Assembly: GCA_030704615.1 (NCBI GenBank)
Contig: CM060734.1
Span: 62,992,001-63,056,000 of the forward strand
Direction: 5' to 3'
Length of the DNA stretch: 64,000 nt
DNA from: Takakia lepidozioides
Taxonomy: Eukaryota; Plantae; Bryophyta
The notes below the pieces were generated by a model, which was given only the letters and a program-made list of their open reading frames with translations, did not search any database and was not told the origin of the DNA. Within the stretch, counting starts at the first letter, position 1, and each line of letters starts with the position of its first letter. Positions 17,367 through 40,955 of this stretch are shown piece after piece. Both the position numbers and the translations under genes were made by a program.

Positions 17367-20300
17367 CTAAGCATGCATTTCCTCCCCCACGATATTTGCC
17401 AGCAGCTCCAATTCATACACATCCTCATTCATAACCTTCCGGATGCGAAAGGGCCCCGCATACGGAGGTACAAACTTTGGATTCACTTCCGGAGGTAGTC
17501 GAAGATTCTTGATGTTCAATAAAACCTCCATACCTGCCTCAAATTTAACTTCCCTCCGCTTCCAATTCGTCTGCCATTCATACCGTTTCCTAGCTTTGGC
17601 AATGTTGTACTTTGTGAGCTCCAACAAATGCTCGCGTTCTTCCAGCACCGCTACTGCTGCCGTTTCCTCAACGTCCTGGGTGGCCCAACTTGTCGGCACC
17701 AGAGGTGCTTTTCCATAGACCAATACGAAAGGGGAAACTCCCGTTGCGGAGTGTTTTGTGTTATTATAACAGAACTCTGCCGCATCCAAGTGCTCCACCC
17801 AGTCTGACTGGTCTGCCGACACATAATTTCGCAAGATCTGCTTCACCACGGAATTCACTCTTTCCGTTTGGTCGTGCGTCGTAGGTCGGAAGGCCATGCT
17901 CATCTTGAGCCTTGTCCCCATTTTCTTCCAAAGTGTCTTTCAAAATTTACTTGTAAATTTTGGATCGCGGTCCAAGACAATATCCTTTGGGAGTCCATGA
18001 TGCTTGAAGACGTGGGTGAAGTAAAGTCGCCCCGTCTCCTACGCCGTTGCCGTCTCCTTGGTTGGGATGAAATGGCACATATCCACCACCACCATGATTG
18101 CATCGAATCCTTTTGACAGCGACAAAGTAGTCATGAAATCCATCGAGACACTTTCCCAAGACCCCTCTGGAATCGGCAAGGGTTGTAACAGCCCCGCTTG
18201 CTTTTTGTACTCACTCCGGTTTTGTTGGCATGTGGTGCATGTCTTGACATACTCCTCGGCCTCCTCCCTCAGTTTGGGCCAGAAATACTCTTTCTTCAAG
18301 AGTGCCGCGGTGCGCTTGGCTCCGCCGTGGCTCGCAAGCGGGCCATCATGGCATTCTCTCAAGAGACTGTCTCTGATCCCTCCCTTCGGCATGTAGAGAT
18401 ACTTTTGCTTGTACTGAAGCAGTCCATTGTGCAAGTGGAACTGCGATTTAATCCCCAATCTCAAGTCCTGCATCACGGACTTCGCTATCTCATCATTTCG
18501 GTAAGCCTTCCGGATCTTCCTTTGGAGTGCCCTCTCGCCGCTGTACACCAACACGAGCTGCTGCTTTCTATTTAAAGCATCGGCCACCATGTTGTCCCGT
18601 CCCGGTTTGTACTGGATATCCACGTCGAACAGTGCCAAAGTGTCTTGCCACCTAAGTTGTTTTGGGGACAACTTAGGCTGTGTGGTAAAATACTTCACCG
18701 TGACATTGTCCGTGAACACCTTCACCGGGTTGGAACCAACATAGTGGCGCCAAAGCTCAAGGCAATGTACCACCGCCTTCATTTCTTTCTCGTGCATAGG
18801 CCACCGTCGTTCCACTTCATTCAGTTTCTTACTTTCGTAAGCCACTGGATGTCCATCTTGCATGAACACACCCCCAATTGCGAAGTCCGACGCATCTGTA
18901 TGAATCTCAAATAGACGGTCGAACTCCGGGATTTTTAGGACTGGAGCTTCCGCCATCCGCTGCTTCAACTTGGCAAAAGCTTGGCCACAAACGGTGTTCC
19001 ATACTCATACCTTACACTTACACAAAGGTCTGACAGCGGCTCCGTGATCTTGGCGAAATTTCTCACATACTTTCGGTAATAGGAGGCGAGTCCTAGGAAG
19101 GATCGCACTCCCGGGACCGAAGTCGGAGGCTCCCAGTCCAAGATCGCCCTCACCTTTCTGTCATCCATTTTGATCCCATCCTGTGTAATCACATGCCCTA
19201 GGAACTCCACTTTTGTGACCCCGAATTCGCACTTTGAAACTTTGGCATACAGCTTCCCTTCCTGTAATTTCTGGAACACCCTTTTGAGGTGCTCCAGGTG
19301 CTCTTCCTTCGTTTTCAAGTACACCAAGATGTCGTTGATGTACACGATCACAAAGTCATCCAACCACTCCTGGAAAAGGTTGTTCATTAGCGTGCTAAAG
19401 GTCGAGGGTGCGTTGGTGAGCCCAAAAGGCATCACCAAGAACTCATATGAACCATATCTTGTCCTACACGCGGTCTTCTTCTCATCTCCTTCCGCCACTC
19501 GGATTTGATGGTAACCTGAGCGCAAATCGATCCGGCTGAAATACTTTGCTCCTGCCAACCGATTGAAGAGGTCGTCGATCATTGGCAAACGGTACCGGTT
19601 TTTGATAGTCGCCTTATTCAAACCCCTGTAATTGACACACATCCACAGCGTCCAAATCCTTCCTGTCTGCGAATAGCACCGGGGCTCCGTAATGTGACTT
19701 ACTCGGCCGGATGTACCCCTTTGACATTAGATCCTTGAGCTGGGCCTTCAGCTCGACCAACTCTCTGTGGCTCAACCGGTAGGGCGCCTTGGCAGGCGGC
19801 TCCGATCCCGGTATCACCTCTATCTTGTGGTCAACTCCTCTTCGCGGTGGCAAGCCGCTTGGTAAATCCTTCGGCATCACATCCTGGTATTTCTCCAGGA
19901 TCCCCTTGATCCAATCTGGGCTCGGCTCCCTATCGACTTCTCCTTCCATTTGTCTTACATAAAGCAAAAATTGGGGTTCGTGTGGCTCCTCCACGGCCCA
20001 CTCCTTTGCTGTCAGCAGGTTTATTCGCCCTCCCACTCGGTTGGGCGTTTCCGACACTTGTAAAACTTCGCCACCATCCCCACACGGTAGCGTGACTACT
20101 CTCTTGCGGCCATCTATGACCGCTCCGGATTTGCTCAAAAAGGTCATCCCCAAAATGAGATCCATTCCATCGATCTCGCAAATGGTGAAGTTCTCACGTC
20201 CCTCCCAACTCCCCAGCTGATGAGGAACATCGAACGCCAACCTCGTCGCCAGTTGTGGTTCTTTTTTGGCAGAACGCACTTCAATAGAGGCCCCCACATC

Positions 20301-20904
20301 ACTTGTCGGGAGCCCCAGCTTCCGTGCCGTTGCCGGTGTCATGAAAGAGCGCGACGCTCCAACAACGTCACGTTAGTTTCAGAAATTATCCCACTCACAA
20401 ACATTAACTGACTCCCTTTACGCAAGGGGCCAGTCTCCTGATACAACTCACAAGAGTAGTTGCCTACCTTGCAAATCTTGGCAACCACCGCTTCCACCAA
20501 GCGGCTGATGGAATCTTCGGACAACTCCGTGGTCGCTCGAGTCAAGTTCAATTGTCGGGGTTTTGCGCACTTCTTGGCCATGTGCCTGGGCTCCCCGCAA
20601 TTAAAGCACACTCCATCGAAGGTCGCCTTCTGTCCGCCATAAGTCGCCGCACCTTATTTTCTTTTCGGAGCACCGGATGTCGCCTTGACGTGTGTAGGCC
20701 TTCCCTTCGATTTCCATGTGCCATTGTCGCCGCGTGGCCTATCCCACTTCTTTTCCGGTCGGAAGGAGTCACCCTCCCGCCGGGTCTTCTTGTGGTTCAG
20801 CTCCGTACGGCCTTGTCTTTCGCCCCTAGGGACATCCGAGAAACATTCAGCCATTTTAATTGCCTCGTTCAAAGTCTTAGGTGGCTTCTCATCCAACTTC
20901 CGTC
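17367..20904 (-). mobile_element. Ty3/Gypsy retrotransposon gag-pol, degenerate and 5'-truncated
   Basis: Zinc knuckle CFNCGEPRHMAKKC, frameshifted protease, RT (IDLRSGYHQIR, YINDILVY), RNase H (IHTDASDFAIG, VADALNR), integrase HHCC and core, and a PYAGPF motif. Domain order is PR-RT-RH-IN. Confidence 0.92.
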
Positions 20905-21749
20905 GGGTCTATACTTTCTATGAGCAATGAGCACTTTTAAGCATGAGCAGATGCAAAATTAAACATGAGCTGCGCATATACTAGGGAATATTCCCCAATT
21001 CTAGTCCCGCTGTAGATGCATTTTTGCATTTTTGACAATTAAAATATCCAAGAAGTCCCTGGATCAGAGGACATTGGAGGTAGGTTTGGATGCTGAGGTA
21101 GGTTCGGGGGTTGTCATGCATCTGCAAATCGGTGTCGACTTCCACAGTACTGTGGTTTTCCAAAGAGGTCAGGGGGGCTACCACGGAAATAGGTCTTCCT
21201 TCTATAACTGCGGTGAAATTTGACCATTTCATGATGACGGACTGTCCATTTCCCATAAGTCGGCACAGACTTGTGGGGCCCATATGATGTCTGTAATCTT
21301 TAAATGAAAGTTTAATATGTATGTATTTAATGTTATGAGTTTTTTTTATTTTTCACAATTTCCAGTTGAGAAGTCGGCACAGACTTGTCCAATGCCGCAC
21401 TGGTATGTACTAAAAGTCTGCATAGACTTGCCATTTCCTAGGCTTCAAACACACCACCTCGGTCAACTTCACAACATAGGAAAATACACAAAAATGTTAT
21501 GGTCTTGCAATTCTTGAACAAGGATAAAAGACAAACTGGAAGAACACTCGCAAAAACTCAGAGACCGCTCATCGGTAAGTCGGCACAAACTTGCAGAATA
21601 GTAGACGACCCTTCCCGGCTAGTGGCAATAGACGTATTGAATGGAATTCGCTGGCTTAGAAAACAAGAATAGTGGAACGAAAAGCGGTGGATGCAGAACA
21701 TAAGGCAGTATCGTAGGCAAATGCTCCTCATCTTCGCTCGCAGAAGGAC

Positions 21750-24700
21750 GCTTCTGATGACGTTATTCCACCCACACGCAGGGATCATGGTGAAGCATTG
21801 CACTGGCCTCGTTCATACTCAAAGTAGGATAATTAATTAAGGGACTGTCAACACAACAGCGGAGACGCCGAAGAAAAATCCAGTAAAGGTGCTTGCAATG
21901 GGTGTACCCTTCCTTCAGATTGCGCATCTTCACAAAGTCGGTCCGGGTAAATGTCAATTGAGATGTAATAAACCTGCCCGTTGGTTGCTGAGCCGGAAGT
22001 ACTGATGGTGTAAATTCTTCCCATCCCCGGTCGAGGAACATCACGAAAGCTCTGAACGATACCTCGCAGCGACATCGCCAATCTGACCTTCGTCCTATTA
22101 AAGAGTTGTCTGTTTTTTGCGGTTATATTGCTTGCCCCATCTGCATTTGGGGTAATAGTCCCGATTCTGATGAGCTGCGGGTTGGTGGGCACAAACATCC
22201 TCCTCCATTTGAAATCGTGGAATATCATCCCTCGGGACCAGGCAAAACCCGGCTGCATCCAATGAGTTAACTTCCTCTTGAGTCAAATCTGTTCCTGCCA
22301 TCATAGGCCATACCTGTGGTGGGTCAGGTCTGTCCTTCACATCTCGGTGGACTCCCCCACGAATGTCACCAATCGCCTCAACCTCACACCTGTGGCCCTA
22401 ATGAATGTCTTGAGGACAAAACCAGAACTCATGCAATTTCGGTTTTGCAAAAACTGGGTTGTGGCACATTCCAATGTACTTCGGAGCTGGGACGATCTTG
22501 AAGGATGGATCTGCTGCTTATAGGGTTGCCCGCTGTCAACCTGAATACCCCAACATTGGGCACGTGAAAAGTCCGTTGTTCTTGCAATATGCCAATTAGC
22601 AGTGGATAGTGAAGTCTCCAACACTGGTTTTCCCTACTGCTGTGGAACACCGTTGTAGTCGGGAGGTGCGATGTCATCCTCCTCATCCACATCCTCCACA
22701 TGCACTCGGGAGCCACCTGCGCCTGAAGCCCGCCTCGGTCCAGTCCGCAGGTTCATATCAGACCGCCATGAATGTTGATCCTCCTCCTCATCCAGATTGT
22801 GGACGAGTATCTTCCTCTTTGTTGTGTGTGTGAGAAGGTCACCTTCCAAGCCGTCCGCACGGTTATGCAGTGGTGTTCCAACCACAAATGTCTTCAGAGC
22901 CTCCGCCATTTTCTTTGGGTCACTTGACCTCGATGCCGCACGCACCAGCAAATCCTCTCGGCTGGGTCCAACTCTTTTTTTGCCCCCATTAAGGAACAAA
23001 CGGTACCCGGATGTCTGCAGGCACGCATGCACAATATCATGTCGTATTGCCGTGTACATGTCCGACTTCACGGAGCCACTCCCTGCTTGCCAGCTCGCGT
23101 GAACCGATTCCGATATTCACATTCGGCATGTCCGCGTCCTCCTCCAAACTGAGTCCCTGAACAGAGCAAAAAAACTTGTAAGATGGGAAGTCGGCACAGA
23201 CTTGCGTGGCGCCGGAAAACCGAAATGTACATACATGCCTCTTTGGACTACTCACTTATAGGACACGGGAAGTCGGCACAGGATTACAGACGCGACTGGG
23301 CAGACAAACGGAATAAACATACTGGAAAGACGACACCGACATCCCTGTCAGTACTCCGGCGACATGGAGCTGGACTTAGGAAGTCGGCACAGACTTCCCT
23401 GTTTGCACATGGGAAGTTTGCACACATGCAAACGTGCCTGGGCACAGTGGCACTCCACTGACAAGTCGGCACAGACTTCCATGTGACAAAGAAGGATGGG
23501 AAGGCTGCACAGACTGGGTTCGGGGAACAGTATAGTAATAGCATAGTGGTAAGTCGGCACAGACTTCCCTATCTGCACTCCCAGAGCATTGCCATGGGAA
23601 GTCGGTGCAGACTTAAAAAGGTGGCTGGACACACTGTCAAAATAGCCAATGCGAAGTCGGTGCAGACTTCCCTATCACGCACAAAGCATGCATGATGCCG
23701 GAGGTGGGAAGTCGGCATAGACTCCCCGAGCACCGATTTTGGCTGTGACAATCCACCCATCATCTGCTCACGTTAGCAACCGCAAAAGCAATGGATATAG
23801 TAGTGGTGACTTTGCAAGCACCTGCATTCTTACCTCCCTCACGAATGACCCAAGCTGGGCATACCGGTATGTCCACCACGAAAGCCAGCTATCTAGGGCG
23901 GGAATATCTTCTTTGGTTGCCGCTCCCGATGATATCCACCATGATCTGATTGACATGAATGCTATCTCAGCTTTTGTTGCTGTGGCGGCCGACCTCCATT
24001 GTCCACACAATTTAATGTGTGCCGATTGAAAGTTTGGCCAAATGAGGTCCGTGGTATGCCTCTGAAGACTCTGTCCCCAATGAAATCCGCAAGTTCTCTC
24101 CCTACCTGGCATAGGGTTCCCGCCACCATAAACATTTCGAACCGCCGCCCAGTTTGCATTTGCATTGGCCGCCATGAATCCTCTAAAATGCGGTGGTCTC
24201 TTTCTTGCTCGGACCATGTGCTCATTGATGCTCTCCCACATAATCATTTGAGATGGTGTGTCTTCCAACTTCATCTTGCAAATGGCGATGGTCATGAGCT
24301 TCCTGTAGTTGGGCTCGTACACATGGCAGGCCATCGTGCTCCATCCATTTATTTGTTTAACATTGTCGAACATCACCCAGCTAATTTCCAATGGCCCGCC
24401 AACATTCATCATATCCACGAGATGCACCCCGGATGTCGGCCCATCAGTTGACATTTTGAAGACAAAGCACCGTTGATGCTCGTTCCCTTGCCCGGGAAAT
24501 CTGCTGGAATGGATATACTCATACCCACACATAGACTTCATTTGCAGCAAGCTGGTCATTTCGTCACCCCGGCTTGTCTATGATTTCATTCTGTTGATGG
24601 TACTCTTGTTTGATGGGCTGCCAAATGCTTTGACCGCATCCAATAGAGCCTCGAACTCCTTGCTATCAAGTTTGCATCTTTCGCCCCCATCGGCCGACAT

Positions 24701-26104
24701 AATATGTTGCATGACAATGGTCTGCGCCGCATTGAGCTCCACAACTTTTGGTCGTGCCGATGGAGACCTAGTGAGCTCCTCTCTCAATACCTCCTTTGTA
24801 CGCGCAGCAGCTTCTCTGGATGCGCCTGTGGCACTCCTATGGGTGTGGCATCCCACATGGACTGTACAACGTGTCATCAGGAGGTCCGCAGACGTAAAAC
24901 ATCTTCGCCGGACAAGCCTCCATACAGGTAGGAGCTTGGTTGCAAATGGAGCAGACAAACGTCCTCTCCGGTACTGTAATTTGTGCTTGAAATTTCGTAT
25001 CCGAGGTCCCCAGCCACAAAGTGTCGTTGTGATACCTCTCCCTCACAAAAAACAGGCAAGTCGCCCGTACGCATTTCAAACTCCCAACACAGTTCACATA
25101 TCTGCAACACACGGCGTCACGAAGAAATTCAGTGAAGCGAGATGACAAACTCATCTTGGTGTTGTTTGGGAAATCAGCACAGACTTCTCCAAGGACTTAC
25201 AGGACTCTTGATATTGCAGAAAAATCTCATAGTGCCGCAAGATACCAATGTACACACTAAAAATCGGTGCCGATTTCTCCAAGAAGGTCGCACATTTTGA
25301 AATTGCAGAGCATTCTCATAATACTTGAATTCATTTGATACACAAGAGAAATCGGCACAGACTTCAGGAAGGATGAGACAGAGCAACAAACCTAACTGCC
25401 GTGTCTTTCCTGTCTAGCAACGACAATTTCAGATTTGTAGTTTTTGCTATAGTCCATGGGTTTCCGTCATATTTCCGGTCCACGCCTTCCAGCTGGCCCG
25501 TTGCACTGGTGTTTTCTGTCGGCGGCAACTCGTACACAATGTCCCTATCTACTCTTCTGGGTAAATGGTTCACCTTCACTATTTGAACACTGTGAAAGTC
25601 AATCCTAGAAAGCTCACTGCGGGATGTGGTGCTGGTGCGTAGGAGCTGCAAGATGTCCACCATTGAATTTGTAACCGCATCCGCGGGTGTGGGAGTAAAC
25701 ACGTCGGCGTTCACCTCATGTGCATCGTTGTCCTCCGTGGTGTTTGCGCGCGTGCGCGGAGGTGCGGAGTGTGCTCGTCTGCTGCTAACCACCATGCAAT
25801 CCTCATCCTCCTCACTCAATATTTGAATACTCTCCGTCTTCGCAAGACGTGGGCCAAATATGGATGCGGTAGTCGGTGGAGTAAGGATGCCGACACACTC
25901 GACGATGATGCTTGCTGGCCATATACAATGTATTTGTCGACCTGTTTCGTGTGGAATGACATAGGCCCACGCAAAATCATTTCGTTTAGGACTGACAATC
26001 CGAGTTTCCACAACGCCATCCTCTCCCACCTCCTCGATTTCAAAAATAGCCGTCCTAGGCTGCAATGCAAACCGAGATCTGAGAACCTTGTCTGCGAATA
26101 TCAC
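21750..26104 (-). pseudogene. MULE transposase with SWIM zinc finger, intron-containing and degenerate
   Basis: MULE core 'WVMFDNVK...GFMAANANANWAAVR...ERTCGFHW' (23768-24559), Cys-rich region (24837-25154) and SWIM 'DFVKM...HCKHLYWIF' (~21870-21960). GT..AG intron at about 23832-23158. Confidence 0.75.
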
Positions 26105-28276
26105 CTAAGCATCCTTTGCTTCCACTCTAACAGACGCATTTGTAGATGGACAGGTTAGGCGAACGCGCTCAGCCATGTTGACAGTGACAGAGTAGAAGGT
26201 GTGCTCTGAACAGAGTGCAAGTACGAACAGAATGATGTCAGTGTTTGTATGTACATTGAGAAATTTGAAATGGAGCGGTCCTTGTCCACCACTTTCCAGG
26301 TGGCGCAGCTTTGGCCTTTAGCAAATGACATTCTTCTGGCATTTTCCAACGGCAACTTACCTGTCAGAATCCGCGTAAATCCCTAACATTCCGACTGCTT
26401 GCCGGAAGTCTGCAACGACTTCACGGCAGTGCAACGTATCTTGCAGATGGACCCACGAAGTCCATCGTAGCCGTTCGAAATGGAACTGGCAAGTCGGTGC
26501 AAAATTGCCTCTGAGCACAAGGCCGCAGACCGCAAAAGAACCCGCAAAAAATACGCAGCCCACTTCATGATGTCTTCTTCGGAAATGAACTTGCCGGAAG
26601 TCTACGCCGACTTCCGGAAATGGTCTGCCGGAATGTAGTTTTCGTGTAATGTGGACGCACAAAAACGGCAAGTCTGTGACGACTTCCGGCATTTTCTGAC
26701 GAGAAACTATCGAAATATGCCTAAATGGCCTGCCGGGACTTAGTTTTTAGGGGCAGGCATCAATATAACATCCAAGTCAGTGCCGACTTGCCGGAAATGC
26801 ACTCCCGGCAGCCGCGAAAGTCCAACTTTGGGCGGACTAACAGCAATGTCACTGGAAAGTCTGTGCCGACTTCCCGGAAAACCGACGGGCAGTCCTCACA
26901 TGCAATGTCAGGCGTCCAGGCTACCCTTAGATTTGGGAATAGACCAGCCGGGAAGTCGTCACAGACTTCCCGGCAATTACCCGTTTTCAGGCGGACATAA
27001 TCCGGGAAGTCTAGGCAGACTTCCCGGAAACATCATTATCAGGCAGACATCACCGTCAAGTCTGCACAGACTTGCCACAAAATTCCACATTCAGGCGCTA
27101 CATGTGACATTTTGCGGCACTGCACGTGTCGTGTGGTCATGCGTTGTGTTTTCAGGTGATGACTATGACCTTTCAGGCAGCGCACGTGTCGATTAGGCAC
27201 CCGTTGGGGCCTGCGATGTTAGTGGCGCATCTTCAAAACGTCTTCCAGAAGCGTCGCCGCGAAGCGACTTCCACCAAGCCGCCACTTTCTCGTCTTCCGC
27301 CAAACCGCCTCTTCGTTCCCACACCTACTCCTTCGCTTCATTGCTTAGTCTGCACACGCCTTCTGCCCCTCCGTGGATTGCAGCAGTACATCGCAACGCT
27401 TTTGGAGAGGCGCTCCCGGTCTTTTCAGCAACCATGGAGGCTATTGGTGAGGACGACCCCGACCTTCAGCTTGAGAGACCCTCGCAGAGACCCTTGCAGA
27501 TGGTGTTGAGGACCCGCACCATTGTTTCCAGTTCGCAGAGCAGCGAGCAGGCGCGTGGGCGAGGGAAGGCGCGGGGGAACACCACTGTCAAGTTAAATAA
27601 ACGCAGTGTGAAACTAACTAGAATAAAGCTAGTTATTTGTATTTAACACTTGGATTTAGTTCAAGTATTAAGTCAGGTATCAAGTTTAGCTTGACACCTG
27701 AACCATCTTATCTTCATGAGAGCGTCAGTCGTGCGGCTCATCTCTCTCGAGTTGAGCCTGCACGACCGAGCTCCTTCACTGTTTAGAATCTGAGTGTGCT
27801 TATGAAGGGAGAATAGGTTGTTGTGGGGTGGAGTCCCCATAGCTTGGGGTGCCCCTGGCTCGACTTAATATATGAGTGATGGTGTTGTGTTTTGTGTTTC
27901 TCTGTTATCAGACATTTGAGTTTAGTTCTTTCAATCACTCGAGAGAGATGCGTAGATGGAGCAATCGGTGAGTGCCCAGGTTGCAGCGGGAGTCTCCTGC
28001 TTGTCTCTGTGCAAGTCGGGCTTTCTGGCGGGCTCCAGTCCCTCGCAGGGCAAGCTCCCCCTGTACTGCCACTCCTGAGACTCTGCTCGAGAGCTGCTGA
28101 AGTTAGGTTTAGTTAGTGATTTGAGATCAGATTTGTGCAAAAGAGAGCGTTGTTTGAGGTTTGTTCAAAATGGATTGTCTGGGGGAAATGAGGACGTAAT
28201 TTAAGGGCAGGTCTCTTCTCTTAGCCTGTGCACACAAGGGGACAAGATTTATGTTTCTCAAGGAACTCAGACTGAT

Positions 28277-28924
28277 TTGAGTGGGGAGCAATTGGACGAG
28301 TTGATTGCATACTGGGAGTCAGGCATTAGCAATAGACAACAAACTGCTGTAGTTGGCGTTGCAGGCCTCAATATTGCTTTGGACAGTCAGAACTCTGTTG
28401 GAGCTAGCAGTTCTGCAGCTGTAGGTGAAATACCAAAGTGGGTGGAAGCTAGGCTTGGAACACAGCCAAAGACAGCCCCGGGGACCAAGGTGTTCAGCCA
28501 CAAGGCCGTGGTGTACTGGAGCAGAGGAGCAGGAGCTACACAAGTTTTTGCAATCAGACATGGTTGCAGCCGGACACGCTCTGCACAAGGCAACCACAAG
28601 CAGGGGTTCATTAGCAATGACAAGTTTGTTTTGCTTGAAGGAGATGCAGTCATTCGCAACGAGGACACCCGCAACCGTCTCAAAGCTTTTGAGTTGAGAG
28701 ACTGTCAGACCCTACCTTTATTTTCCTTAGTATTCAGTGAGCGGGAGATAGGGAAGTATTGCTTTTTCTCTACCTGGCAGAAAGAGGAGGAGGGTTGGTT
28801 AGAGCGAGCTACAATAGCTTGGGATAAGGTTAGTGGCAGGTTTCTGGACATAGATATACCTCCTACACCTTACCATCATGCAGAGCGAGGCACTTTGAGA
28901 GAAGTCTGGCAGTTGATAGCATAG
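28277..28924 (+). CDS. Extra ORF of unknown function upstream of the PBS
   Basis: Open 215-codon frame with globular-protein composition. No motif recognised and the start codon is uncertain (TTG). Confidence 0.45.
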   Translation: MSGEQLDELIAYWESGISNRQQTAVVGVAGLNIALDSQNSVGASSSAAVGEIPKWVEARLGTQPKTAPGTKVFSHKAVVYWSRGAGATQVFAIRHGCSRTRSAQGNHKQGFISNDKFVLLEGDAVIRNEDTRNRLKAFELRDCQTLPLFSLVFSEREIGKYCFFSTWQKEEEGWLERATIAWDKVSGRFLDIDIPPTPYHHAERGTLREVWQLIA

Positions 28925-29392
28925 ATCAAGATTAGATCTTGCTTGGTTGGGCCTCTATTCTTCCCCTCTTTCTCTTTACTATTTTCATTACTTTGTACTT
29001 GTAGTTGCCAAAGCCTCTCTTGGTGGAGGCCAATCAGTCCGGGGTTTTTGGGCTGGGATATTCTGCAGGATCAGCACTACAGATGGATTTTGGTGTGGGG
29101 GTGTTGATGTTTTGATTTCTTGTGTTTGGATCCCCCCCAACACCTGCATGCTTGACTGTGCGCCATGTTGATTTTGTGTGGGCGCTTGCTTTCATAGGGA
29201 TCAGGCCGGATTTGATCACCGGTCAATCCTAGAGTATGTTGTCGGTGGTGAGGCTGGAGTGATGACCAGCAAGACCACCAGTGTTTCTTCTATGGTGAGG
29301 CTGGGTTGATGACCAGCCAACCATAGGAGTTCTTGCGGTGGATGCAGGTGCAGGTGCCCTTAGCCACTGGGATATAACCTTAATCCGCAACA

Positions 29393-29405
29393 GGTGTACT
29401 AGAGC
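29393..29405 (+). promoter_or_regulatory. Degenerate primer-binding site (tRNA-Met type)
   Basis: ...ccgcaaCA-GGTGTACTAGAGC resembles the canonical CA-(G)TGGTATCAGAGC and lies just before gag. Confidence 0.55.
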
Positions 29406-29418
29406 TTTATAGTGTCAC

Positions 29419-30860
29419 GTGGGGGCGGTGCGGGTTGTGAGTGTCATCACTGAGTTACCCAAGGGTTTTGAGGGGAGTACGGCTACAGGCAGTAGCAGTG
29501 AGAGTGGGTTCACCAGACGAGGTATTCGTTTCAGACCACCTTCACCTCCACCCTCAACTAGTGCAGAGTTAGACACAGACTCGGAGGCTTCATCAACAGG
29601 TGTGCAGTTTTATTCGTCATTGTTGTAGGACGCCATGGAAGAGATGTATGGAGCTACCAAGGGGCCTTGTAGGTACTCTGGAGCTATGGGCACAATTGAG
29701 CTCGATGACTTTATCCAGGAGTTCGATAGCTGGTGTGATTTGCAGCAGATGCGCAATCCACAGCTGTTCACCCCATTCATGGCGTGGAAGGGACTGTTCC
29801 AGCATTTGGAAGGCCCGCCTATGGACGATTACCACGAGTTTAGGCGAGGACATGAAGCAGAGATTGAGGAGTGGAGGATGTATTGGTCACCTGACTACGT
29901 CTCCATTCCTCGAGGCACGATGCGACCAATAGCTGCATCAACACCAATATCTCCCACTGCCAGCACTAGTAGTGGAATAAGTAGTGCCGGTACTTCTGCA
30001 GGTGGTACCAGTTCAAAAGGTGCTACTACTCCTCCTGCCACGACTACAACACATGTGCCTAGATTCAACCCGGTGGTGGAGTTCTTCTAGGAGTTGCGGA
30101 CGAACTACCAAGGCGTACGGACAAAGAAGCTGTGAAATTTGCAAGACTTCCAGCGCAAATCCAATGAGAGCTTGCGAGAGGCCTACACTCGTATGAGGCG
30201 CTTGATAAGTGTGACCCAAGGGGTTACTGAAGCTCAGGCAATCCAGTTCGGGTATGGAATTTTGGACAAAGAGCTCAAGAGAAGGGTGTGGGATGCAACC
30301 CTGTTACAAGCAGCCCAACCCACATTAGCAGATGTGTTTCTGCTGGTTGAGCGGATTGAGCTCAACATGGTGGAGGAGCGAGTTGTTACCATTGGATTTG
30401 GCAAGGACATGCTTGCACGAGGTGCAGCTGCCAGCCAATAGGCACAAGGGACTGCCCAACAACGTGGTCAGGGGGGCAAGGTTGCCCAACCCAAATTCCA
30501 TGGAGCTTACAGGGGACCTTAGGTGCAGAGGGTAGTAGCATCTTTTGCAAGCCAACAACAACCAGGGGTGATATGTTGGACATGTGGAGGACCCCATGTC
30601 AAGAAAGATTGCCCAAAGAGTGGCAAAAGGCCGGCACAAACACAGCCTGCACAGTTGCAGTGTGGGCATTGTGGCAAGTATGGGCATGGAGATGCCCAGT
30701 GTTATGACTTGCACCCTGAGTTGTGGCAAGGCCAGTTCCAAGGGAACAATGGTGGCCGAGGGTGAGCTGGAGCACCTCAGAGAGGACGAGGTGGTCAGGC
30801 ACGAGGTGTAGGACGAGGGCAAGCATAGTATGGCCAAGGACGTGGAGGTCAGGGAGTTGA
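29419..30860 (+). pseudogene. Gag with two zinc knuckles
   Basis: 'ELDDFIQEFDSWC', 'FQRKSNESLREAYTRMRRL', CWTCGGPHVKKDC and CGHCGKYGHGDAQC in one frame with several in-frame stops. Confidence 0.85.
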
Positions 30861-31639
30861 CCAAGGCATGGCCAACCGACTTCAGCAACTAGAGCAAAGG
30901 CTTGCTGCCATGGCCATAGCTCAGGTGGTACCAGCTCCAAGACCTGAGGGTCCACCTCTCGTTCCTCCTCAGCAGCGTCATCCCGACGGAGGAGACATGG
31001 GAGGCATGGGATTTATGTGTGGGGCAGCACTACCACTAGTGCAGGTGGAGTCTGCTGCAGCCGCCACTCGAGGAGCAGCACGAGTTCCTGAGCCACGAGG
31101 TGCAGAGGTGGAGTTAGATCCACAGCGTGGGGAGGCAAGCCGTCAGGCTAGGTTGCCTCAATCATTCATCTTGGGGGAGACAGTGTCGACGACATCCATG
31201 GCACCTAGTTCTCGCCCGACAGATACAGAGGCCATTATTGTGCCATTGGGGAGAGCTACACGTGCAGTACTGACACCTGCTGCCAAGGCTAGTGCAGCAG
31301 CCACCTCTGTGTGTCAGGCCCCACTGTTCTCGGCAACCATGATCGCGATGCCGGGGGTAAGACCAGTGGCAGTGTTCAGACTAGCAGCAACACTCTGCGA
31401 GAATGGGGAGGTCATTTCATCTTCTGCGGAGTTAGTGGAGGGTGTAGTGGAAGAGGGATCCTCGGATTTGAGGGTCAAGACTGCCACGGCTGCGTCATGG
31501 CAAGCTGCAGCTGCCAGGTTGACGGAGCTGCCAGCTAGGCCAGTCTTTCAGCGCGCCATGATGACACCTGGAGTTGTCTTGTTAGACAACCAGGATGACA
31601 TTTTCTCTTTGAGTGGACCGGCAGGCAAGAGGTACCGGC

Positions 31640-31970
31640 CACGCGGGTCTTGTTGGACTCGGGAGCTCAGCCACTGATGTTGGGCAGAGTTGCTATTGCA
31701 GGTTTGGGCCTCATGGAGGCGGACATGGAGTCTTGTCCTTTCCAGATTCAGACATCTCTGGGAGGATCAGAGCAGGCTCGGGGCATGACACGGCGTGAGT
31801 TGGCCATTAGACTACAGTCAGATCATCCTATAGATGGCTCAGTGATGCGAGCTAAGGCCATTATGACAGACGCGGTCTCTTACGATGTCCTCATTGGTGG
31901 GGCAGTGTTATATCCCATGGGCTTCACCCTAGATTTTTGGCAGGAGTCAGCATCCTACAGGCCTGGATGA
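31640..31970 (+). pseudogene. Retropepsin aspartic protease
   Basis: 'LLDSGAQPLML' catalytic DSG and a C-terminal 'YDVLIGG' motif. Confidence 0.85.
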
Positions 31971-32369
31971 CAGTCAAGGGATGGTTGTCGTGTACAGCTC
32001 CGTGTGACATTCATTGGGGGTGCTGCTGCTGCCCAGTGGGGCAAGATGCCAACACTAGCCGCCTTCACAGCTGCAGTTAGTTGGCTTGGAGGGTTGCTGG
32101 AGGGCAATGCCCATGCAGAGGATGTGCCACCTCCAACAGAGCAGGATGACATGCATGGTACAGCAGAGTTGCCTGCCATGGTTGCTCACACTCCATTGTG
32201 GGGTATGAGCAAGGATTTGCAGCAAGCTGCTGATAGACAGGTGCAACAAGCCTGGGTAGAGGCCTTCGTACCGTCAGGAGAGGAGGAGAGTGCGGTGATT
32301 GCACCAGGACCACCTCAGTTGTTGCCATTGGACACCACACCTCTTGTGTGGCAGTGCCCGGATGAAGGC

Positions 32370-33320
32370 ATATGCCTTTTGGACTTGTTTGGCGGGATCA
32401 GCACTGGATTGGCTGCAGTGCTGCAGGCAGGTGTACGAGTTCGACATTACCTGTATGTGAAGAAGGATGAGACTGCACGACGCGTCTCACTGCGCCATGT
32501 TGCTCAATTGGTGCAGCAGTACCCTGATTTGTTGTCAGTGTCTGCAGTTCGTGGATACCAACAAGCATTGCCAGCAGACATCTCCTTGCTGGGGGCGCAT
32601 GATTTGGAGCGGGTTGGCCCTATTCACTTAGTAGTGGCAGGGTGGCCCTGCCAAGGGCTTTCATCAGCTGGGTATGACAATGGGTTACAAGACTCAAGGT
32701 CACGCCTGTTTTGGGAGATGTTGAGGGTCCTGCGCTATTTACAGCTTCAGCAGACAGACTCTCCGGCATATATCTTGGAGAATGTGCCATTGATGGGTGA
32801 TTCACGGGCCAAGGTGATGGCCAGTGTACATCAAGTGCGGTCTTGGCTTGGGTCAGCAGTGTTACTGGATGCAGCTGCAGTGGGGTCACGAGCTCATCGC
32901 CCACGAGTATGGTGGACCAACTTGATGTCACCTGCATTGCTCAAGCGTGCATTTGATGGGGTGCAACGGCCACCAAACCTGACGGTGGATAACATTTTGG
33001 ACATAGGGAGGCAGTCTCAGCATGTGAGACACGATGACCGATCACCTTTGGCAGTGGTCAATAAGGTGGGTCACCCACGAGCAACATTGCCTACACTGCT
33101 CAGCGTTCCAGGATCTCATGCTTTTCGGGATGGTGGACATGGCCTCTTGTGGGATAGCCAGTTGCAGCAATTAGTGGAGCCCAATGCTGACGAGCGCGAG
33201 CGGGCGATGGATTTTACCACTGGTACCACGGCAGTGCCATCTCTTTCTGAGGCATCACGTCGTTAGGTGTTGGGGCAAGCAATGGATCTCAATTGTTTGA
33301 CCTGGATTATCAGCTTGGCT
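32370..33320 (+). pseudogene. DNMT3-like C5 cytosine DNA methyltransferase domain in the polyprotein
   Basis: Motif I LLDLFGGISTG; II YVKKD; III ADI; IV GWPCQGLS (Cys codon 32649); V DSRSRLF; VI YILENV; VIII AHRPRVWWTN; IX ERERAMDF; X VLGQAMD after one TAG at 33264. Confidence 0.93.
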
Positions 33321-33746
33321 ATGGCTGAGCAGCGCAGAGTACGAAGTACACTTTCCTTGATGGTCTCCCTGCCTACCGAGACGGTACAGGTAGCGAGTGG
33401 GGGCGAACATGTGAGGACCACAAGGTGCAGGCCGTATCCATGGCACATGTGGGAGGTGCTCGAGGTTCAGAAGGAGTTGGTAGCCAAGGCGGCCGTGATG
33501 GATGAGGTTGGGGATTTTTCTCGGGTTGAGGAGGTCCTCAAGGATGGGATGATGGGGCAAGATGAGACATTGTCACTGACAGAAGAGGCAGTGGTCATTG
33601 CTCAAGAGGTTGCAGCATAGCAACCACGGGACGCGTCTTCTACCTCTAAGCCTGCTGGACTCAAGGTTGCAGTCACGGAGGACAACTGGGAGCCTGATGT
33701 TGGACCTATAGTCACCGGAGGAGAAAGACGACGTATACGGCAGTTC

Positions 33747-35110
33747 TTGAGGGCTTACAGGAACTGCTTTGCCTTTAGTTTGAAGGACTTAGGAGCAATG
33801 AAGGGTCAAGAGATTTGCATTGAATTGGCTACTGACACGCCAATCTTTCGGAGACCCTATAGATACAGTGACATGGAGAGGTCCTTGATTCAGATGAGAA
33901 CTCAGGACCTTTGGGAGGCTGGTTTGGTGGAACTATCTGGGGGAGAGTATGCTTCAGCCACAGTGATGCCAGCCAAGAAGGATGTTTATGGCAATTGGAC
34001 GGAGACACGTATGTGCGGTGATTACCGGCCTGTAAATCGTCAGACCAAGTCCGATAGGTATGCCATGCCGACACCAGAGGAGATCTTTGATGCCATTGGG
34101 CATGCCAAGGTCTTTAGCACTTTGGATTTACGATCCGGATATCACCAGTTGCCGATCAAGGAGGCGGATAAGCAGAAGACGACATTCTGGGGGATCAATG
34201 AGCACGGGAAAGATTGCCTATACCAGTGGCGGTTCTTACCATTTGGGCTTAAGAACGCTCCTGCAGAGTTTCAGAGAGTCATGGACAAGATTCTAGCAGG
34301 GGTGGAGTTTGCTCGGTGCTACATAGATGACATCATCATCTTTAGTGTTACGGTGGAGAAGCATGAGAGACACCTTCAGGTGGTATTTGAGCGCTTGAGG
34401 GCGCACGGATTGAAGTTACATCCGGGGAAGTGCAAGTTTTTCCACAACCGGATTGAGTATCTGGGTCACATGATATATCCTGGAGGATTGGGGGTACAGT
34501 AGACTGAGGTAGAGGCCATTGCACAGATTCCACGCCCCATGGATGTGAGCCGAGTTTGAGCTTTCATGGGATTGGCAAACTATTATAGACGGTTTGTCAA
34601 GGGATTTAGTGCCATTGCAAAGGCTCTAACCAAGCTGACCAAGGTGGACCAGGAGTGGCAGTGGGAAGATGAGCAAGAACGAGTTTTCCAAGAGCTCAAG
34701 GCGAGGTTGACCTCGGCGCCCATCTTGAGATGACCTATCAAGGGGCGTCCTTTTCAGCTGCATACAGATTAGAGCATGCTGGGGCTTGGAGCGGTGCTCA
34801 CATAGGTGGATGATGAGGGAAGAGAGTTTGTAGTGGCTTATGCTAGTCGCTCGCTGCAGAGACTAAGTATAGCTCATATGAAGGAGAGTGCTTAGCTGCA
34901 GTGTGGGCCGTGGCACAGTTCAGGTGCTATATATATGACAATCTCTTCACCCTTGTCACAGATCACCAGCCACTCAAGTGGTTGATGGATTCAGACAAGC
35001 TTACGGGGAAGCTTGCACGGTGGGCACTCATACTTCAAGAGTATGACTTTCAGGTTGTGCATCGACCGGGTTTGGTCAATCAGGATGCAGATGGGTTGAG
35101 TCGCAATCCA
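33747..35110 (+). pseudogene. Reverse transcriptase and RNase H
   Basis: RMCGDYRPVN, LDLRSGYHQ, PFGLKNAPAEFQR, YIDD, then 'LVTDHQPL' and 'DADGLSR'. Confidence 0.95.
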
Positions 35111-35499
35111 TGCACGAGCCAGCAGGATGACACTGGAGCTTGGTGGCATGGTGAGACGGACGAGGAGATGGTGACCGGATGGTATGCATCTGCATTTCTG
35201 TGTATCTTGGCAGCGGAAGGCCAGGTTGGACCTGCAACAGGGATGACTGTAGATCAAGTGTCTGAGGACCCTGAGGCCAGCAATGAGCAAGGTGACGCCA
35301 AAGATATACATGAGGATTCAGCTGTGTTGGACTACCTCCGCACTGGAGACACGACAACCACTGTGACTGCCAAGGAGAGGGATCGGATCCTACAACGAGC
35401 CAAGAGGTTCAAGTGGGAGGGGTCACACCTACTCCGAGTGTGGGAAGATGGTCGAGTGAGGATTGTGCCTCACCCAACCCAGCGGGCACGGTTAGTGCG

Positions 35500-36560
35500 G
35501 CATGCCCATGAGGAGTTGGGGCATTTTGGGATGCGACGCACTCATAGTCTACTGTAGGGGCAGTATTGGTGGCGTGGTATGCACACAGAGGTGCAACAGT
35601 TTGTGGCTAGGTGCATGGTGTATGACAGGGTGCGTGCTTCATTCAACGCCCCTACTCCACAATTGCACTGGTCATCTTCCGATCATGGGATTGGGCTACA
35701 GGTGGAGTCTTGACTTCGCAGGGCCGTTGCCACTGACCATGCGCCACAACAAGTACGTGTTGGTGATGGTGGAGCACTTCTCCAAGTGGATCCAGTTGGT
35801 TCCATTGCCTGATAAGGCTAGTGAGGGAGCTGCGTATGCATTCTTGGATTGTGTACTTAGCCGATTCGGTGCTCCAGCTGAGGTGCTCACGGACCAAGGG
35901 AGAGAGTTCTTGGGGGAGTTTCAAGCGTTGTGTGACAAGGCCTTGGTAGACCACCGCACCACTTCTCGGGATCATCCTGAGGCCGATGGCTTGGCAGAGA
36001 GGGTTGTTCGGACAGTGAAGAGGGGTTTGCGCAAGTATGGCTTGTAGAAGGGACACCTAGGAGATTGTGACCTTCAGTTACCTTGGTTAGCCATGGGCTA
36101 CAGGTTCAGCAAGCAAGCATCACTTGCCTCTTTCTCACCATACTTTCTTCTCTTTGGCCGAGAGCCGGATTTGCCTGCATCCATTTATAGAGAAGCTGCT
36201 ACAGTTCTCAACCTTGACGATCCGGACATGTGGGCACATGCATGTGATCAGCGTGCAGAGTTGTTCAAGAAAGTCATGCCCATGGCTTTCGAGAACCTTG
36301 CCATTGCACAACATCGTGATACGTTGAGGTATGCTACCATACGTGGTGGGGGCTATCGTCCTGGGGTTCGGAGATTTAACCTTGGTGACTATGTTTATCT
36401 GCAGCAGACTGCTCCTACGACCTTGGATGTGACTACATGACGTACTATTTTGAGGGTTCAAGAGGTGTTACCCTCAGGAGTCCTGATCTTGGAGGGTCGG
36501 GATGGCATGATTTGGAAGGACCATGTGCATGATAGCGCGCCATGTCACCTTCCAAATGTT
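35500..36560 (+). pseudogene. Integrase
   Basis: HEELGHFG zinc motif, 'WSLDFAGP', 'VLTDQGREF' and 'DGLAERVV' (DDE). One frameshift near 35670. Confidence 0.92.
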
Positions 36561-36608
36561 GATGGAAAGGTTGACCCAAACCTGGCAGTGGTACCTGCAA
36601 GTTTGAGG

Positions 36609-36752
36609 TGCATGTTGTGTGGGTCTGCTAGAGGGGCAGCCACCATGCTGGTGTGTGATCAATGCTCTAGAGGTTGGCATATGGGATGCTTGACTCCACC
36701 TCTTGAGATGGTTCCTGATGGGGATTGGTTATGTCTGCATTGCATTGGATAG
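36609..36752 (+). other. PHD finger at the polyprotein C-terminus
   Basis: CMLC...MLVCDQCSRGWHMGCLTPPLEMVPDGDWLCLHC is a complete C4HC3 pattern, in frame with integrase. Confidence 0.92.
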
Positions 36753-36998
36753 TGGTAGTGGATACAACCATGGAAGGCTAACAAGAAATGCAAGGACAAG
36801 CTACTAGGAGACCTTGAAAACACGAGATCCTGGCTCAAGTTCACAGATTGCAAGACGGCGACTAACGATGGGGCTACTCTTGTACCCGGCCTCTTGGTCT
36901 ATAGAGTTTGAGTACAATAGGGACAGTGATAGAGGACTTAGTACGGCTGTGGCTATTACATCTTGTAGCTATCTGGAGTTAGAGGGATCTATCCACCA

Positions 36999-37011
36999 GC
37001 TAGGGGGGCGA
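36999..37011 (+). promoter_or_regulatory. Polypurine tract
   Basis: GCTAGGGGGGCGA followed by T-TGTGGCAGATTA. Confidence 0.6.
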
Positions 37012-39431
37012 TTGTGGCAGATTACTTTATTGTCCATATATGTGGACAACGATGTAGTTGTGTAGCGATACGTATGTGCACGACACCACGAAAAGGCAAT
37101 CTGGATCTGCAGACGCCTCTGCCCCATCCTCCTCTCGGCAGCAGAAATCAGATCGCTCGCCCATGTTGGTATCAAACCGCTCGTCGCCGGGAGCAGGGAG
37201 CTCGCACAGGGGTCAGCATGCCAGGGATCCAGCAGCGCCTGGCGTAGATGTGGTGCTCACTGCAGAGAGATGGCAGAGAGTTCTAAAGACGTTGAGAGAC
37301 AACACCCTGATCCACACCTACAGCTCCATTTCCCATCTTCTCCGAAAAGGCCACCCTCCACGTGTTACCCTTTGCAGGATGAGGACGCTACCTGCTGTTC
37401 GGCGAGCTGAAAGGCCCAGGGTAGAGAAGCTGAAGCTTTTTTTTGAGGGAGATGGGTACAACGACGCCCTTGCGTCCTTTCTACTTGCAACAAACAACAC
37501 TGCAGGAGTGGCTTCCTCCATCACGGCCGAGGATAGAGCGAGCTGGGGCATGCATTGGCAGGAGGAGGACCACTGCTTTGAGGAGGCCATCAAGGGCACC
37601 ACCTAGGAGTTCTTGAGCAACCAATGGTTGTATATCTATGACGGCAACCACCGCTACTTGGCGTGGATGGATGTGATAATAGAGCAGCATGCTGACGACC
37701 CCGAATGGCACTATGCAGTCAATGTGAAGATTATGGATATGAAGCAAGAGGACATCGCTTTGGTCAGAAGGGCCATGAATCGCATGAACGTGTAAGACTG
37801 CTCACGTTTCTTCATAGTCTGCTCATATGAGCATTGTTTCTATCGTCAGTCCTGTAATGTTCTACTCACATTCGCAAACATTTCTCGGCGATTACACCGA
37901 CTGCAGGATACGGGGAGTCGGTGCCGATTTCCCATGCGAAGTGACAATGCTGAGGAGTCTGTGCCGACTTCTGCAGTTGCTTTCTGTAACATGTTGTGTT
38001 TGATGCAATGCAATTTCATTCTGTTTCATGGTGAGCTTCTCTGCTCAGGTAGTCCGTGCTGACTACCCAATATGTGGTCTGGCATGAGAGTGAGTAGTCT
38101 GTGCCGACTACCCAGTCAGAGCTATGCAATGGCAGTGAGTAGTCTGGACCGACTTCCCAGGTCTTGCTCTGGTTCTGCATGTAATGGTGTTTTCTCACTT
38201 TCAAGGACTGCCATAGTATGGGAAGTCTGCAACGACTACCCATTCCTCAACCCTGTTCTCCCTGTGTAGCATACTCTAGTGTTGTTATGCAAGGTGACAG
38301 AAGAGGGCAATGTCAAGTCCGACCTGGCACACAAGCTTTACTATTTCCAGCTATGCGCAACAACTCCAATCGAGCAGTACAAGAATCCACTGTCTGATGA
38401 GGTGTACCTCAAGTGCCTCAACAAACGAGACACGAATTGGATGACATTGACACGGGAGGGCCTTGTCGAGTTCATGGCACAAGAGTCATTCCGGGAGATA
38501 ACGGATGATACACTGGCAGAGTATTCCCACCTTTCCAACACCTCGGAGAATGCAAAGATTGTGGAATCAGCTCTTGATGCAAATTTGGCAGTGTGTAAAA
38601 CTAAATGGCACTCAAAGATTGCCAAGTACAGTTCTATCTGTGAACCAGCCCTTGGCGACGGGTTCCTTTTTGAGATAACAACATACTACAACAAGTTGCG
38701 CGCCCTGGATAGAGCGAAATGACTCTTGAGAAACTTCTAATGGTTGCCACCAGCCTCGTTTCTGCGGAGGCAAAGATTGGGTGGTTGAAACTATGGAATT
38801 TGCCGCCGGCCAACAGGAGAATCTTCCCGGTGTCACCAACGGACCCGCTTGTTACTTTTTAGAGATCATAATTCCAAAAGAGCTACAGGGAATGGCCCGC
38901 ACAGACATGTTGGCCATTCTACTCCAATATCAAGCCCGTCCAATGACAATACTTCCGAGTGGGCAAGGAGAGACTAGAGACTACTGCAGAGACTAGAGAG
39001 AGAGAGAGAGGGGAGAGAAGAAAGAAAACTTGATAATTCATCAAGTCCACGACTATTGGTGGGGGGGCACGAGAACTCTTAGGTCACGAGACAGAAACAT
39101 GAAAAAATTTCCATCCACAAGAGGTTCAGAGAGAGGGAGAATGACAGATCAGCTTACCACAACAAATGTCTTAGTTTTGGGGAGGGCAAGGCTGCCAAAA
39201 GCATCAAACATGGATACTAATTCCCCTTCTTGTAAACGGTAAGTTTTTTCCTAACATCACACAATTACTCTTCACTGTTTTTGTTTGTTAGATGTCACCT
39301 CCTCCAAGACATCCACATTTATGCCCTCATTCCTAAGCACACACTTCGTCCTTGCAATAACATTAGTCTCGCCTAATGCCATTCACACAACCAAGTCCTC
39401 TGCCTTCCGGTCCAAAAACTCACTCTTGGAC

Positions 39432-39951: not shown

Positions 39952-40079
39952 TCTTGGACATGCCATATTGCCTTGTCACATTATTTGCCAAAACAAATTC
40001 AAGGTCCATGTCGGAAATTGAGGAGCAATAGCTGTGTAGTGCTGCCTTAGCCACCATTGGCTTCCTTAAAAAAACTTTC

Positions 40080-40955
40080 ATGTCTCAATGTTTCAATAAT
40101 CCCCGCCCCATCCTGTCACTCAATATCACCCATGTTGGAGCACCTCCAATTCATCTAGGCCCTACCTCTTTAAAATACCCCTCAGCACATGCACACTACA
40201 CAGATGGCTCCCAAGCTGGTTCCTGCGCCGGATATGAAGTCTACCACGCGGCCACTAACACTGGTACAGCCCATCGACTTCCGGGCCCCGCAACCATACT
40301 ACGTGCCGAACTTATGGCCATCTACGAAGCCCTCTCCCAGCTACACGCATTCCCCTCACCATACTACATTTTTACAGACAGCTCAACTTCGCTCTTTCTC
40401 CTCTGAAACTACATAGCCAGCCCATCCTCCCACCATCACCACCCAGATCGTAATCTTATCTCAGCAATCATCACTTTAGCCATCTCAATCAACCAACCCA
40501 TTCAATTTCTTAAAGTACGCTCACATACCGGAATCAACGGGAACGAGGAGGCTGACCTCCTTGCCCGACTAGGGGCCTCCAAACCCCCAGTAGAACCCCC
40601 CACAGACCCCATCCACACTGCACATACGCACCTTTTTTGGCTAATACATCCAATTCCAAGCCCCCCCCGAACCTAAACCTATTCGTAACCTCCGCTCTAC
40701 TCTCTCTAAAGAAGCCAACAAACAAGTCGCTACATCTCTCAGTCACACCAAACAACATATCCAAAAATGGACACACTCCACAATACTCCATCATAAACTG
40801 TCCAACCACTTCTGGCACTCTAAAGCTGCTTCGGACGCACAAATCAAACCACTTAAGTTTAGATTCGCCGAGTATATGGGGCACCAGCGTAAGCATACCT
40901 TCTGGCCAATCATTTTACATCCCCACACTGCCCCCTCTGCTCCCATATACATGCA
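40080..40955 (+). mobile_element. Non-LTR retrotransposon RNase H and zinc-knuckle fragment (Dualen-like)
   Basis: 'YTDGS', 'TILRAELMAI', 'IFTDS', 'KVRSHTGI', 'NEEAD', then 'HCPLC'. Confidence 0.8.

Follow-up and report, generated by a model that had tools for sequence, protein, structure and literature searches.

The window analysed here, a stretch of 64,000 nt, contains one decayed copy of a Ty3/Gypsy retrotransposon between positions 27586 and 37085, flanked by a 4-bp target-site duplication (TSD) (Table 1). The element encodes, in this order, Gag with two CCHC knuckles, protease, a DNMT3-like cytosine methyltransferase (MTase), reverse transcriptase (RT), RNase H, integrase and a PHD finger, and it almost certainly belongs to the KnitGypsy-Dnmt3 lineage, with a DNMT3-type MTase of its own. 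Both ends were fixed by an empty-site joint (27578 to 37083) in contigs of runs X1 and X2, and the open frame that the element interrupts reads on across the empty site. The Gag-protease-RT-RNase H-integrase order, the DDE integrase and the TG...CA termini with a TSD in the 4-6 bp range are those of Ty3/Gypsy elements, and the Pol of a relative matches Ty3 Gag-Pol at 1e-105. The usual pair of full terminal LTRs, with a primer-binding site (PBS) after the first and a polypurine tract (PPT) before the second, is not present; self-BLAST and a repeat finder returned no LTR pair at the ends of the window copy. Two other identities were rejected: Troyka (CG...CG termini, 3-bp TSD, animals only) on the grounds of the TG...CA-type ends, 4-bp TSD and plant host, and DIRS/PAT/Ngaro on the grounds of a DDE integrase in place of a tyrosine recombinase, none of which was found in the element. 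The insertion lies in an open frame of another, lower-copy repeat (26000-27581 and 37090-38720) that has no Pfam match, and a short repeated motif is dispersed over about 21200-27100 and 37900-38250 of the window.

Table 1. Features of the MTase-bearing element and its insertion site (window coordinates)
Feature	Position	Strand	Remarks
Left 4-bp TSD, CCAC	27582..27585	.	empty-site joint in X1, X2
Repeat A: begins TGTC, ends CA; probable promoter-proximal U3, R, U5	27586..27937	+	same layout in L025, L002, L017
Predicted self-primer (transcript 5' end), 14-nt perfect complement of PBS	27739..27752	+	
Predicted PBS directly 3' of repeat A	27937..27950	+	
239-codon open frame in 5' leader, probably not a gene	28205..28924	+	
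Gag, two CCHC knuckles (30574-30702)	29635..31641	+	50% to Marchantia Mp4g09160
Aspartic protease (LLDSGA)	31644..31988	+	relatives match Asp_protease_2
DNMT3-like C5 cytosine MTase, canonical motif order, inactive in window copy	32361..33320	+	PF00145
Conserved in-frame stop followed by CAR-YYA; predicted to allow readthrough from ORF1 (Gag-PR-MTase) into Pol	33618..33626	+	
RT (YIDD) and RNase H, stops and one frameshift	33753..35104	+	
Integrase with H2C2 finger; DDE core retains its catalytic D, D and E	35330..36200	+	
C-terminal PHD finger of Pol	36600..36746	+	PF00628, E=1.2e-10
PPT AGGGGGGCGA adjoining repeat B	37002..37011	+	
Repeat B (probable distal U3), ends CACGACA	37012..37085	+	sister copies go on with GC and repeat A
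Right 4-bp TSD, CCAC	37086..37089	.	flanking open frame continuous across site

The window copy is dead. A stop lies in motif X of the MTase, a Lys occupies the acidic SAM-binding position of motif II, and gag, RNase H and integrase contain stops and frameshifts, including several stops and a 1-bp frameshift in gag ahead of the protease and a frameshift near 35670 in the integrase. The PHD finger at the end of Pol resembles the reader fingers of CHD4, DPF3 and KDM5. The open frame of the 5' leader has no relative in Pfam, the family loci or Atlas.

The element is very abundant in the reads of its host. In two DNA runs of a single sample, contigs are stacked over 27.4-37.2 kb, and the summed contig depth in X1, which is not a copy number and is used only as a ratio, is 22,000-297,000 over the element versus 230-590 in the adjoining flanks. 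None of the runs listed as containing the element is recorded as RNA; contigs of run X5, guessed to be RNA, cover 25 of 30 bins, which says nothing about expression. The window also contains PLS-E class PPR genes whose best matches (up to 54%) are lycophyte, moss and gymnosperm proteins, and the DNA runs holding the PPR region also show the empty site of the element. On these two observations algal contamination was rejected, and they bear out the placement of the element in a land-plant genome by the original prediction; judged from such matches, the host is a land plant and probably a seed-free one.

Several other features were identified in the window. The PPR genes form a cluster at 2430-3142, 56933-58378 and 59847-62310 in which several are truncated or frameshifted. 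A second, unrelated Gypsy element (17370-20653, minus strand) encodes CCHC, protease, RT, RNase H, integrase and a Tf2-like SH3 domain, and no MTase was found in it. An open reading frame with a DUF7869 domain (E 2.7e-35) at 10603-11466 is possibly transposon-related. LINE-type fragments (zf-RVT; RNase H) are present at 14841-15350 and 40032-40406, and at 12459-13128 repeats of 117-210 bp with many CCCTAAA-like telomere motifs form an array.

The methyltransferase and the stop codon behind it

The MTase domain matches the PF00145 profile with E=1.3e-11 (44.9 bits, cut-off 22) and contains the motifs LFGG, GWPCQ, ENV, AHRPRVWWTN, ERERAM and GQAMD in this order, that is, canonical motifs I-X with the catalytic Cys, the ENV Glu and RxR. 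The closest solved structures are DNMT3A, DNMT3B and DNMT3C (E 2e-11 to 8e-9), whereas HhaI and DRM2 reach merely 4e-4 to 7e-3. The structure predicted for the domain of an intact relative (L001, 68% identical; pLDDT 96.7) has DNMT3A bound to CpG DNA as its best match (E 1.6e-19), and DNMT3 is thus nearest by both sequence and fold. The original prediction of a canonically ordered C5-MTase of DNMT3-like rather than DRM type was confirmed by these results, the profile search that it had proposed among them. Its expectation that sister copies carry the domain also held: the MTase bins (121,000-160,000) are as deep in X1 as the rest of the element, and all 15 joints listed (of 127) leave at least part of the MTase in place.

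In a set of 244 full-length family domains that includes near-duplicates, 242 have the catalytic Cys and every one has the ENV Glu. The dN/dS of the MTase is 0.07-0.18 in five divergent, unsaturated pairs (two further pairs are saturated) and 0.39-0.52 in three close moss pairs, the RT of which is likewise relaxed. By these comparisons, purifying selection acts on the family MTase. A host DNMT3 sequence was not found among the 32 fetched proteins scanned.

Three stops (31968, 33264 and 33618) interrupt the frame between protease and RT in the window copy, and all had been attributed to point mutations. This explanation stands for two of them: the stop at 33264 is private to the window copy and absent from sister contigs, and that at 31968 has no counterpart in the proteins of relatives. 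It fails for the third, which is kept across the family. The frame at 33618 reads TAG CAA CCA, and no sister difference falls on this stop among the 40 differences listed of 53. Of the 32 loci whose sequence extends far enough, 28 show the pattern TAR-CAR-YY downstream of the MTase, versus 8% of random windows. Many of the 28 belong to one moss-type family, and about seven lineages are independent. Among the other four loci, two copies carry an insertion and one a deletion, and the last has a variant. In L093 this stop is the sole one in the coding region, and the ORF1 proteins of most close relatives terminate 72-99 residues past the MTase. UAG-CAR-YYA is the consensus of tobamovirus type I readthrough as given in the cited text (PMC3159437). 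The family shares this context in the forms TAG CAA CCA, TAG CAA TCA and TAG CAG TTA, whereas CAA-CCC is found in the moss subfamily and TAA replaces TAG in some copies.

Its conservation marks the stop at 33618 as a TAG-CAR-YY signal of the readthrough type and not a point mutation. A signal of this kind behind the MTase suggests that the enzyme is likely made together with Gag, in excess over RT. Some Closterium-like members encode MTase and RT in a single open reading frame, so that Gag-level dosage is not family-wide. The MTase does share the frame of protease and RT and is encoded by the element, as originally predicted, but it ends ORF1 and is not part of one continuous Pol polyprotein.

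An enzyme packaged at the Gag level would likely methylate new cDNA; for cDNA methylation as such, the chances are put a little above even. Dnmt3 domains of dinoflagellate retrotransposons methylate CG de novo, and the K. nitens domain gave no methylation in yeast, a test that the authors call inconclusive (main text of PMC5890265). The MTase may alternatively be kept for another role, such as marking of target chromatin together with the PHD finger, silencing of rivals or non-catalytic DNA binding. The inactivity of the K. nitens domain in yeast, the resemblance of the PHD finger to chromatin readers and the lack of a clear CpG signature all agree with such a role. It is nevertheless rather unlikely, as the catalytic residues are nearly invariant, which argues for catalysis, the fusion to Gag and protease would place the MTase in the particle that makes cDNA, and the dinoflagellate domains are active de novo (PMC5890265, main text). 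CpG depletion was rejected as a sign of self-methylation: the observed/expected ratio of the element (0.44-0.61) does not set it apart from the window (0.54), the values for a PPR gene, the other Gypsy element and L093 being 0.33, 0.83 and 0.78, respectively. Seventeen sister differences lie in mixed CG, CHG and CHH contexts.

Relatives and origin of the family

A total of 47 longer homologous proteins were found at E<=1e-5, including 17 from Marchantia, one from Calypogeia and two from Sphagnum, and 212 clusters passed E<=1e-30 in a full HMMER scan. The MTase is mostly 55-73% identical to its relatives in these three genera and 37% identical to that of K. nitens; the RT of a Coleochaete Pol is 66% identical. 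As these matches indicate, the family sits unrecognised in the gene models of Marchantia, Calypogeia and Sphagnum, and many of the Marchantia models are annotated as hypothetical proteins.

Two domain orders were observed. The protease precedes the MTase in 37 of 191 mapped proteins, with Klebsormidium and Closterium among the named sources; in K. nitens, KFL_013780020 encodes Gag-protease-MTase and KFL_013780010 encodes RT-RNase H-integrase, the latter on a contig equal in length to that of the former. In 73 of the 191 the MTase follows RNase H (Scenedesmus is named), and in these chlorophyte-type members (P0185, P0321) it lies between RNase H and integrase, an arrangement described in no paper of the literature searched. 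Another protein, P0286, carries an MTase of the same clade behind a copia-type Gag domain (PF14223), which suggests transfer between retrotransposon superfamilies.

FastTree phylogenies of the MTase and RT from 77 elements, retained from 111 after removal of near-duplicates, are congruent (Mantel r 0.62, p 0.001; 27 of 74 splits common), and the position of the MTase changes once on each tree. The simplest reading of the trees would be one old capture and one relocation of the MTase. In an RT tree of 49 of 52 rows, with the second Gypsy element of the window as outgroup, the window RT groups with Calypogeia and metagenome elements near those of Sphagnum and liverworts; the three rows left out, both RTs from Marchantia and one from Calypogeia, were of insufficient length, and Marchantia is therefore absent from this tree.

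The land-plant members may instead have arisen by horizontal transfer among bryophytes and algae, or by separate capture of a host DNMT3, rather than by vertical descent. Identities of about 70% in the MTase and up to 80% in RT across liverwort- and moss-type elements would fit this explanation. Calypogeia holds two distant lineages, and no named match from Physcomitrium or vascular plants was found in the searches. The Coleochaete RT is also nearer than that of Closterium, and the host tree places these two algae otherwise. Separate capture is opposed by the agreement of the MTase and RT trees and by the common domain order and split ends, and transfer by synonymous sites that are near saturation between the window element and its nearest relatives. 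Both are judged unlikely beside vertical descent, though a horizontal transfer in the distant past keeps some probability.

Searches of microbial data yielded few members. IMG/VR contained merely 12 distant MTases and nothing with the Pol query. Three of 80 GTDB loci (L093, L094 and L095) belong to the family, the others being distant bacterial MTases. These three are deposited in bacterial metagenome-assembled genomes, probably as eukaryotic contamination, and L093 (9285 bp) is circularly collapsed.

Split terminal repeats and integration

The PPT and PBS delimit the start and end of the reverse-transcribed LTR, and the LTR is for this reason taken to be B-GC-A. The insertions themselves begin at A and end at B, with their ends at the palindrome GACA-GC-TGTC inside this LTR. 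The only complete, unrearranged relative, L025, has the layout A1-PBS-coding-PPT-B1-GC-A2-B2, with A2 joined directly to B2, between two copies of AAGG. Its repeat pairs are equally diverged (A1/A2 identical at 313 of 340 positions, B1/B2 at 106 of 113). Two joints in host contigs agree with this layout: one connects the right end of the window element to its left end (37085 to 27585, GACA-GC-TGTC), and the other runs from the end of repeat A, the first 352 bp, into the beginning of repeat B, the last 74 bp (27936 to 37011). DIRS-like A-coding-B-A-B repeats are thus seen in L025 and in both host-contig junctions, the window copy itself being A-coding-B. B1-GC-A2 is also present in L002, L017 is flanked by the TSD CACA, and in four copies (window, L009, L010 and L015) the element stops exactly with the GACA of B1. 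Collapsed assembly affects most algal-type contigs, which show neither outer ends nor a TSD.

Exact copies of the 10-bp palindrome GACAGCTGTC number 16 across 83 family loci (650 kb) and none across 89 control loci (1.44 Mb); the palindrome is found in both domain orders, from mosses to chlorophyte-type elements, and a CpG stands beside the palindrome in 16 of 17 cases. L041 and L044 contain no such palindrome in more than 3 kb after the PHD finger. At 9228 in L050 a different palindrome, CGTCA-GC-TGACG, lies at a comparable place and is possibly a variant attachment site. The palindrome is very probably an internal integration site within the LTR.

The 14-nt match between self-primer and PBS exceeds that of shuffled sequences (maximum 11, mean 5.8). 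Four elements have such pairs, identically placed and 13-17 nt long, which comprise three unrelated sequences and exceed all shuffles. No tRNA gene was found within the 64,000-nt window. In L025 a TATA-like box lies shortly upstream of the predicted self-primer.

In the proposed mechanism, transcription would start inside repeat A, the 5' end of the RNA would prime reverse transcription in the Tf1 style, and readthrough would yield Pol as a minor product. The linear cDNA would have the form (B-GC-A)-coding-(B-GC-A). The A/B joint points to the joining of two cDNA ends, as in a two-LTR circle, and integrase would then cut the left internal GACA-GC-TGTC site. The product, A-coding-B-A-B, would be the only form with a 3' copy of R and thus the sole one able to replicate again. 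The dead-end A-coding-B form of the window would result from one-LTR circles, from a cut at each internal site or from B x B recombination. This circular route is considered reasonably probable, although the end-joined circle is usually regarded as a dead end for retroviral-type DDE integrases. A symmetric two-LTR circle should also yield the mirror form A-B-A-coding-B, but none of eight independent 5' starts (seven in loci, and the window) has B-GC in front, and the circular route therefore requires an unexplained bias. Methylation by the MTase of the CpG beside the cut site could explain the missing mirror product and link the MTase with the split ends, in that one site would be used and the internal chromosomal site protected; this speculation is quite unlikely to be correct.

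Integrase may also cut inside the LTR with no free circle, in which case the A/B joint would arise by a template switch in reverse transcription or by host repair after strand transfer. Template switching has reportedly been proposed for the split repeats of PAT and Ngaro, and DIRS-1 itself, as far as its available description goes, uses linear single-stranded cDNA. Such a route accounts for the single isomer, and the A/B joint is nearly precise in L025 and the host contigs. It is doubtful, since B2 would lie outside the reach of standard strand transfers and the joint of L016/L017 retains PBS and PPT-side remnants (PBS remnants are left in L017). Retroviral end-joined two-LTR junctions keep such remnants.

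That the element is an ordinary LTR retrotransposon with A as its LTR, the A-B-A-B and A-B forms being products of later recombination, deletion or tandem insertion, is very improbable: A does begin with TG and end with CA followed by the PBS, and rearranged copies are common (L004, L009, L016/L017), but the PPT adjoins B and not A, the TSDs lie at the start of A and the end of B in all three insertions compared at both ends (window, L025, L017), B follows both complete A2 copies, four copies stop exactly at the GACA of B1, and conservation of the palindrome extends from moss to chlorophyte-type elements.

The preferred model thus combines an ancient green-plant Gypsy lineage, an MTase packaged at the Gag level that would act on the cDNA, and an integrase that would insert end-joined cDNA by way of the LTR palindrome; resting on comparative sequence evidence, it is given a probability of about 0.6. 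A more specific version is held only tentatively, with odds somewhat against it: a lineage as old as the green plants with its attachment site in the middle of the LTR, in which a DDE integrase would act on end-joined circular cDNA and a particle-loaded DNMT3-type enzyme would pre-methylate the cDNA and might choose or protect the site.

Comparison with known systems

KnitGypsy-Dnmt3 was described by de Mendoza et al. (2018), who place the acquisition in the K. nitens lineage (PMC5890265). It too is of the Gypsy type and carries a Dnmt3-type domain that has its motifs in canonical order and evolves under purifying selection. The legend of Fig. 4c likens the arrangement of its repeats to that of DIRS, which the legend of Fig. 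1e gives as A-coding-B-A-B, and the K. nitens proteins likewise comprise Gag-protease-MTase and then RT. The present family has the homologous Dnmt3-type domain in a Gypsy coding region, the DIRS-like repeats and the purifying selection of this lineage. The window element differs in its land-plant host and high abundance, and window-type MTases end ORF1 before a readthrough-type stop, whereas the paper puts the MTase in the Pol ORF; in its available text, neither a PBS or PPT nor a palindromic site or TSD is mapped, and a route of integration is not put forward (PMC5890265).

Two recent reports, Sarre et al. 2025 (PMC12344493) and a 2026 preprint (10.64898/2026.05.21.726589), refer in their available text only to streptophyte elements. 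The family is unmentioned in the accessible text of PMC6453930, PMC6317226, PMC11982613, PMC12885004, 10.1101/363937 and 10.1101/2021.02.12.428880. Neither land-plant members nor an internal-site model are described in the literature searched. Either may be recorded in sources beyond this search, namely Repbase, the supplementary figures of PMC5890265 and most subscription journals. The REXdb description of the Phygy lineage names NCGN as preferred targets; the three TSDs found here are CCAC, AAGG and CACA.

The claim of novelty made for a DNMT-bearing retrotransposon of land plants holds in part: the host is a land plant, but the element is no fresh capture and belongs to the lineage of the published Klebsormidium element. 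DIRS-like repeats and a Dnmt3-Gypsy are already known from K. nitens, and presence in land plants is a range extension into a model organism. Retrotransposon-encoded DNMT3, so far tied to two algae that are difficult to work with, is thereby brought into Marchantia, whose methylation mutants and genetics make the role of the enzyme testable. The split-LTR anatomy, the stranger of the features and absent from the original prediction, points to a retroviral-type integrase acting at an internal site of end-joined cDNA, against the linear-ends rule, and the split ends explain why LTR-finding software would miss or mis-bound such elements.

A DDE enzyme acts on abutted ends with a short spacer in the copy-out-paste-in circles of IS3/IS911 and in cleavage of the foamy-virus LTR-LTR junction; in the present family such ends are internal to a retroelement LTR, and the likeness is one of analogy only. 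With the host DNMT3 of bryophytes and DRM (PMC6453930, in the text available) the element MTase shares the DNMT3-type catalytic domain, whereas it is intronless, lies in a retrotransposon and has unpermuted motifs. The Pfam scan of the family proteins gave no DUF3444 match. In Tf1/Sushi and Tcn1 the PBS is likewise complementary to the element's own 5' sequence and not to a tRNA, whereas the window element, compared by features, has a PHD finger in place of a chromodomain as well as the MTase and a split LTR (PMC6317226, in the text available). PAT, TOC, Kangaroo and Ngaro have the same A1-B1-A2-B2 layout but use a tyrosine recombinase (PMC4157794, in the portion available), whereas a DDE integrase, a protease and a 4-bp TSD characterise the window element. 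The readthrough layout and the split-LTR anatomy are the features that a specialist would find surprising.
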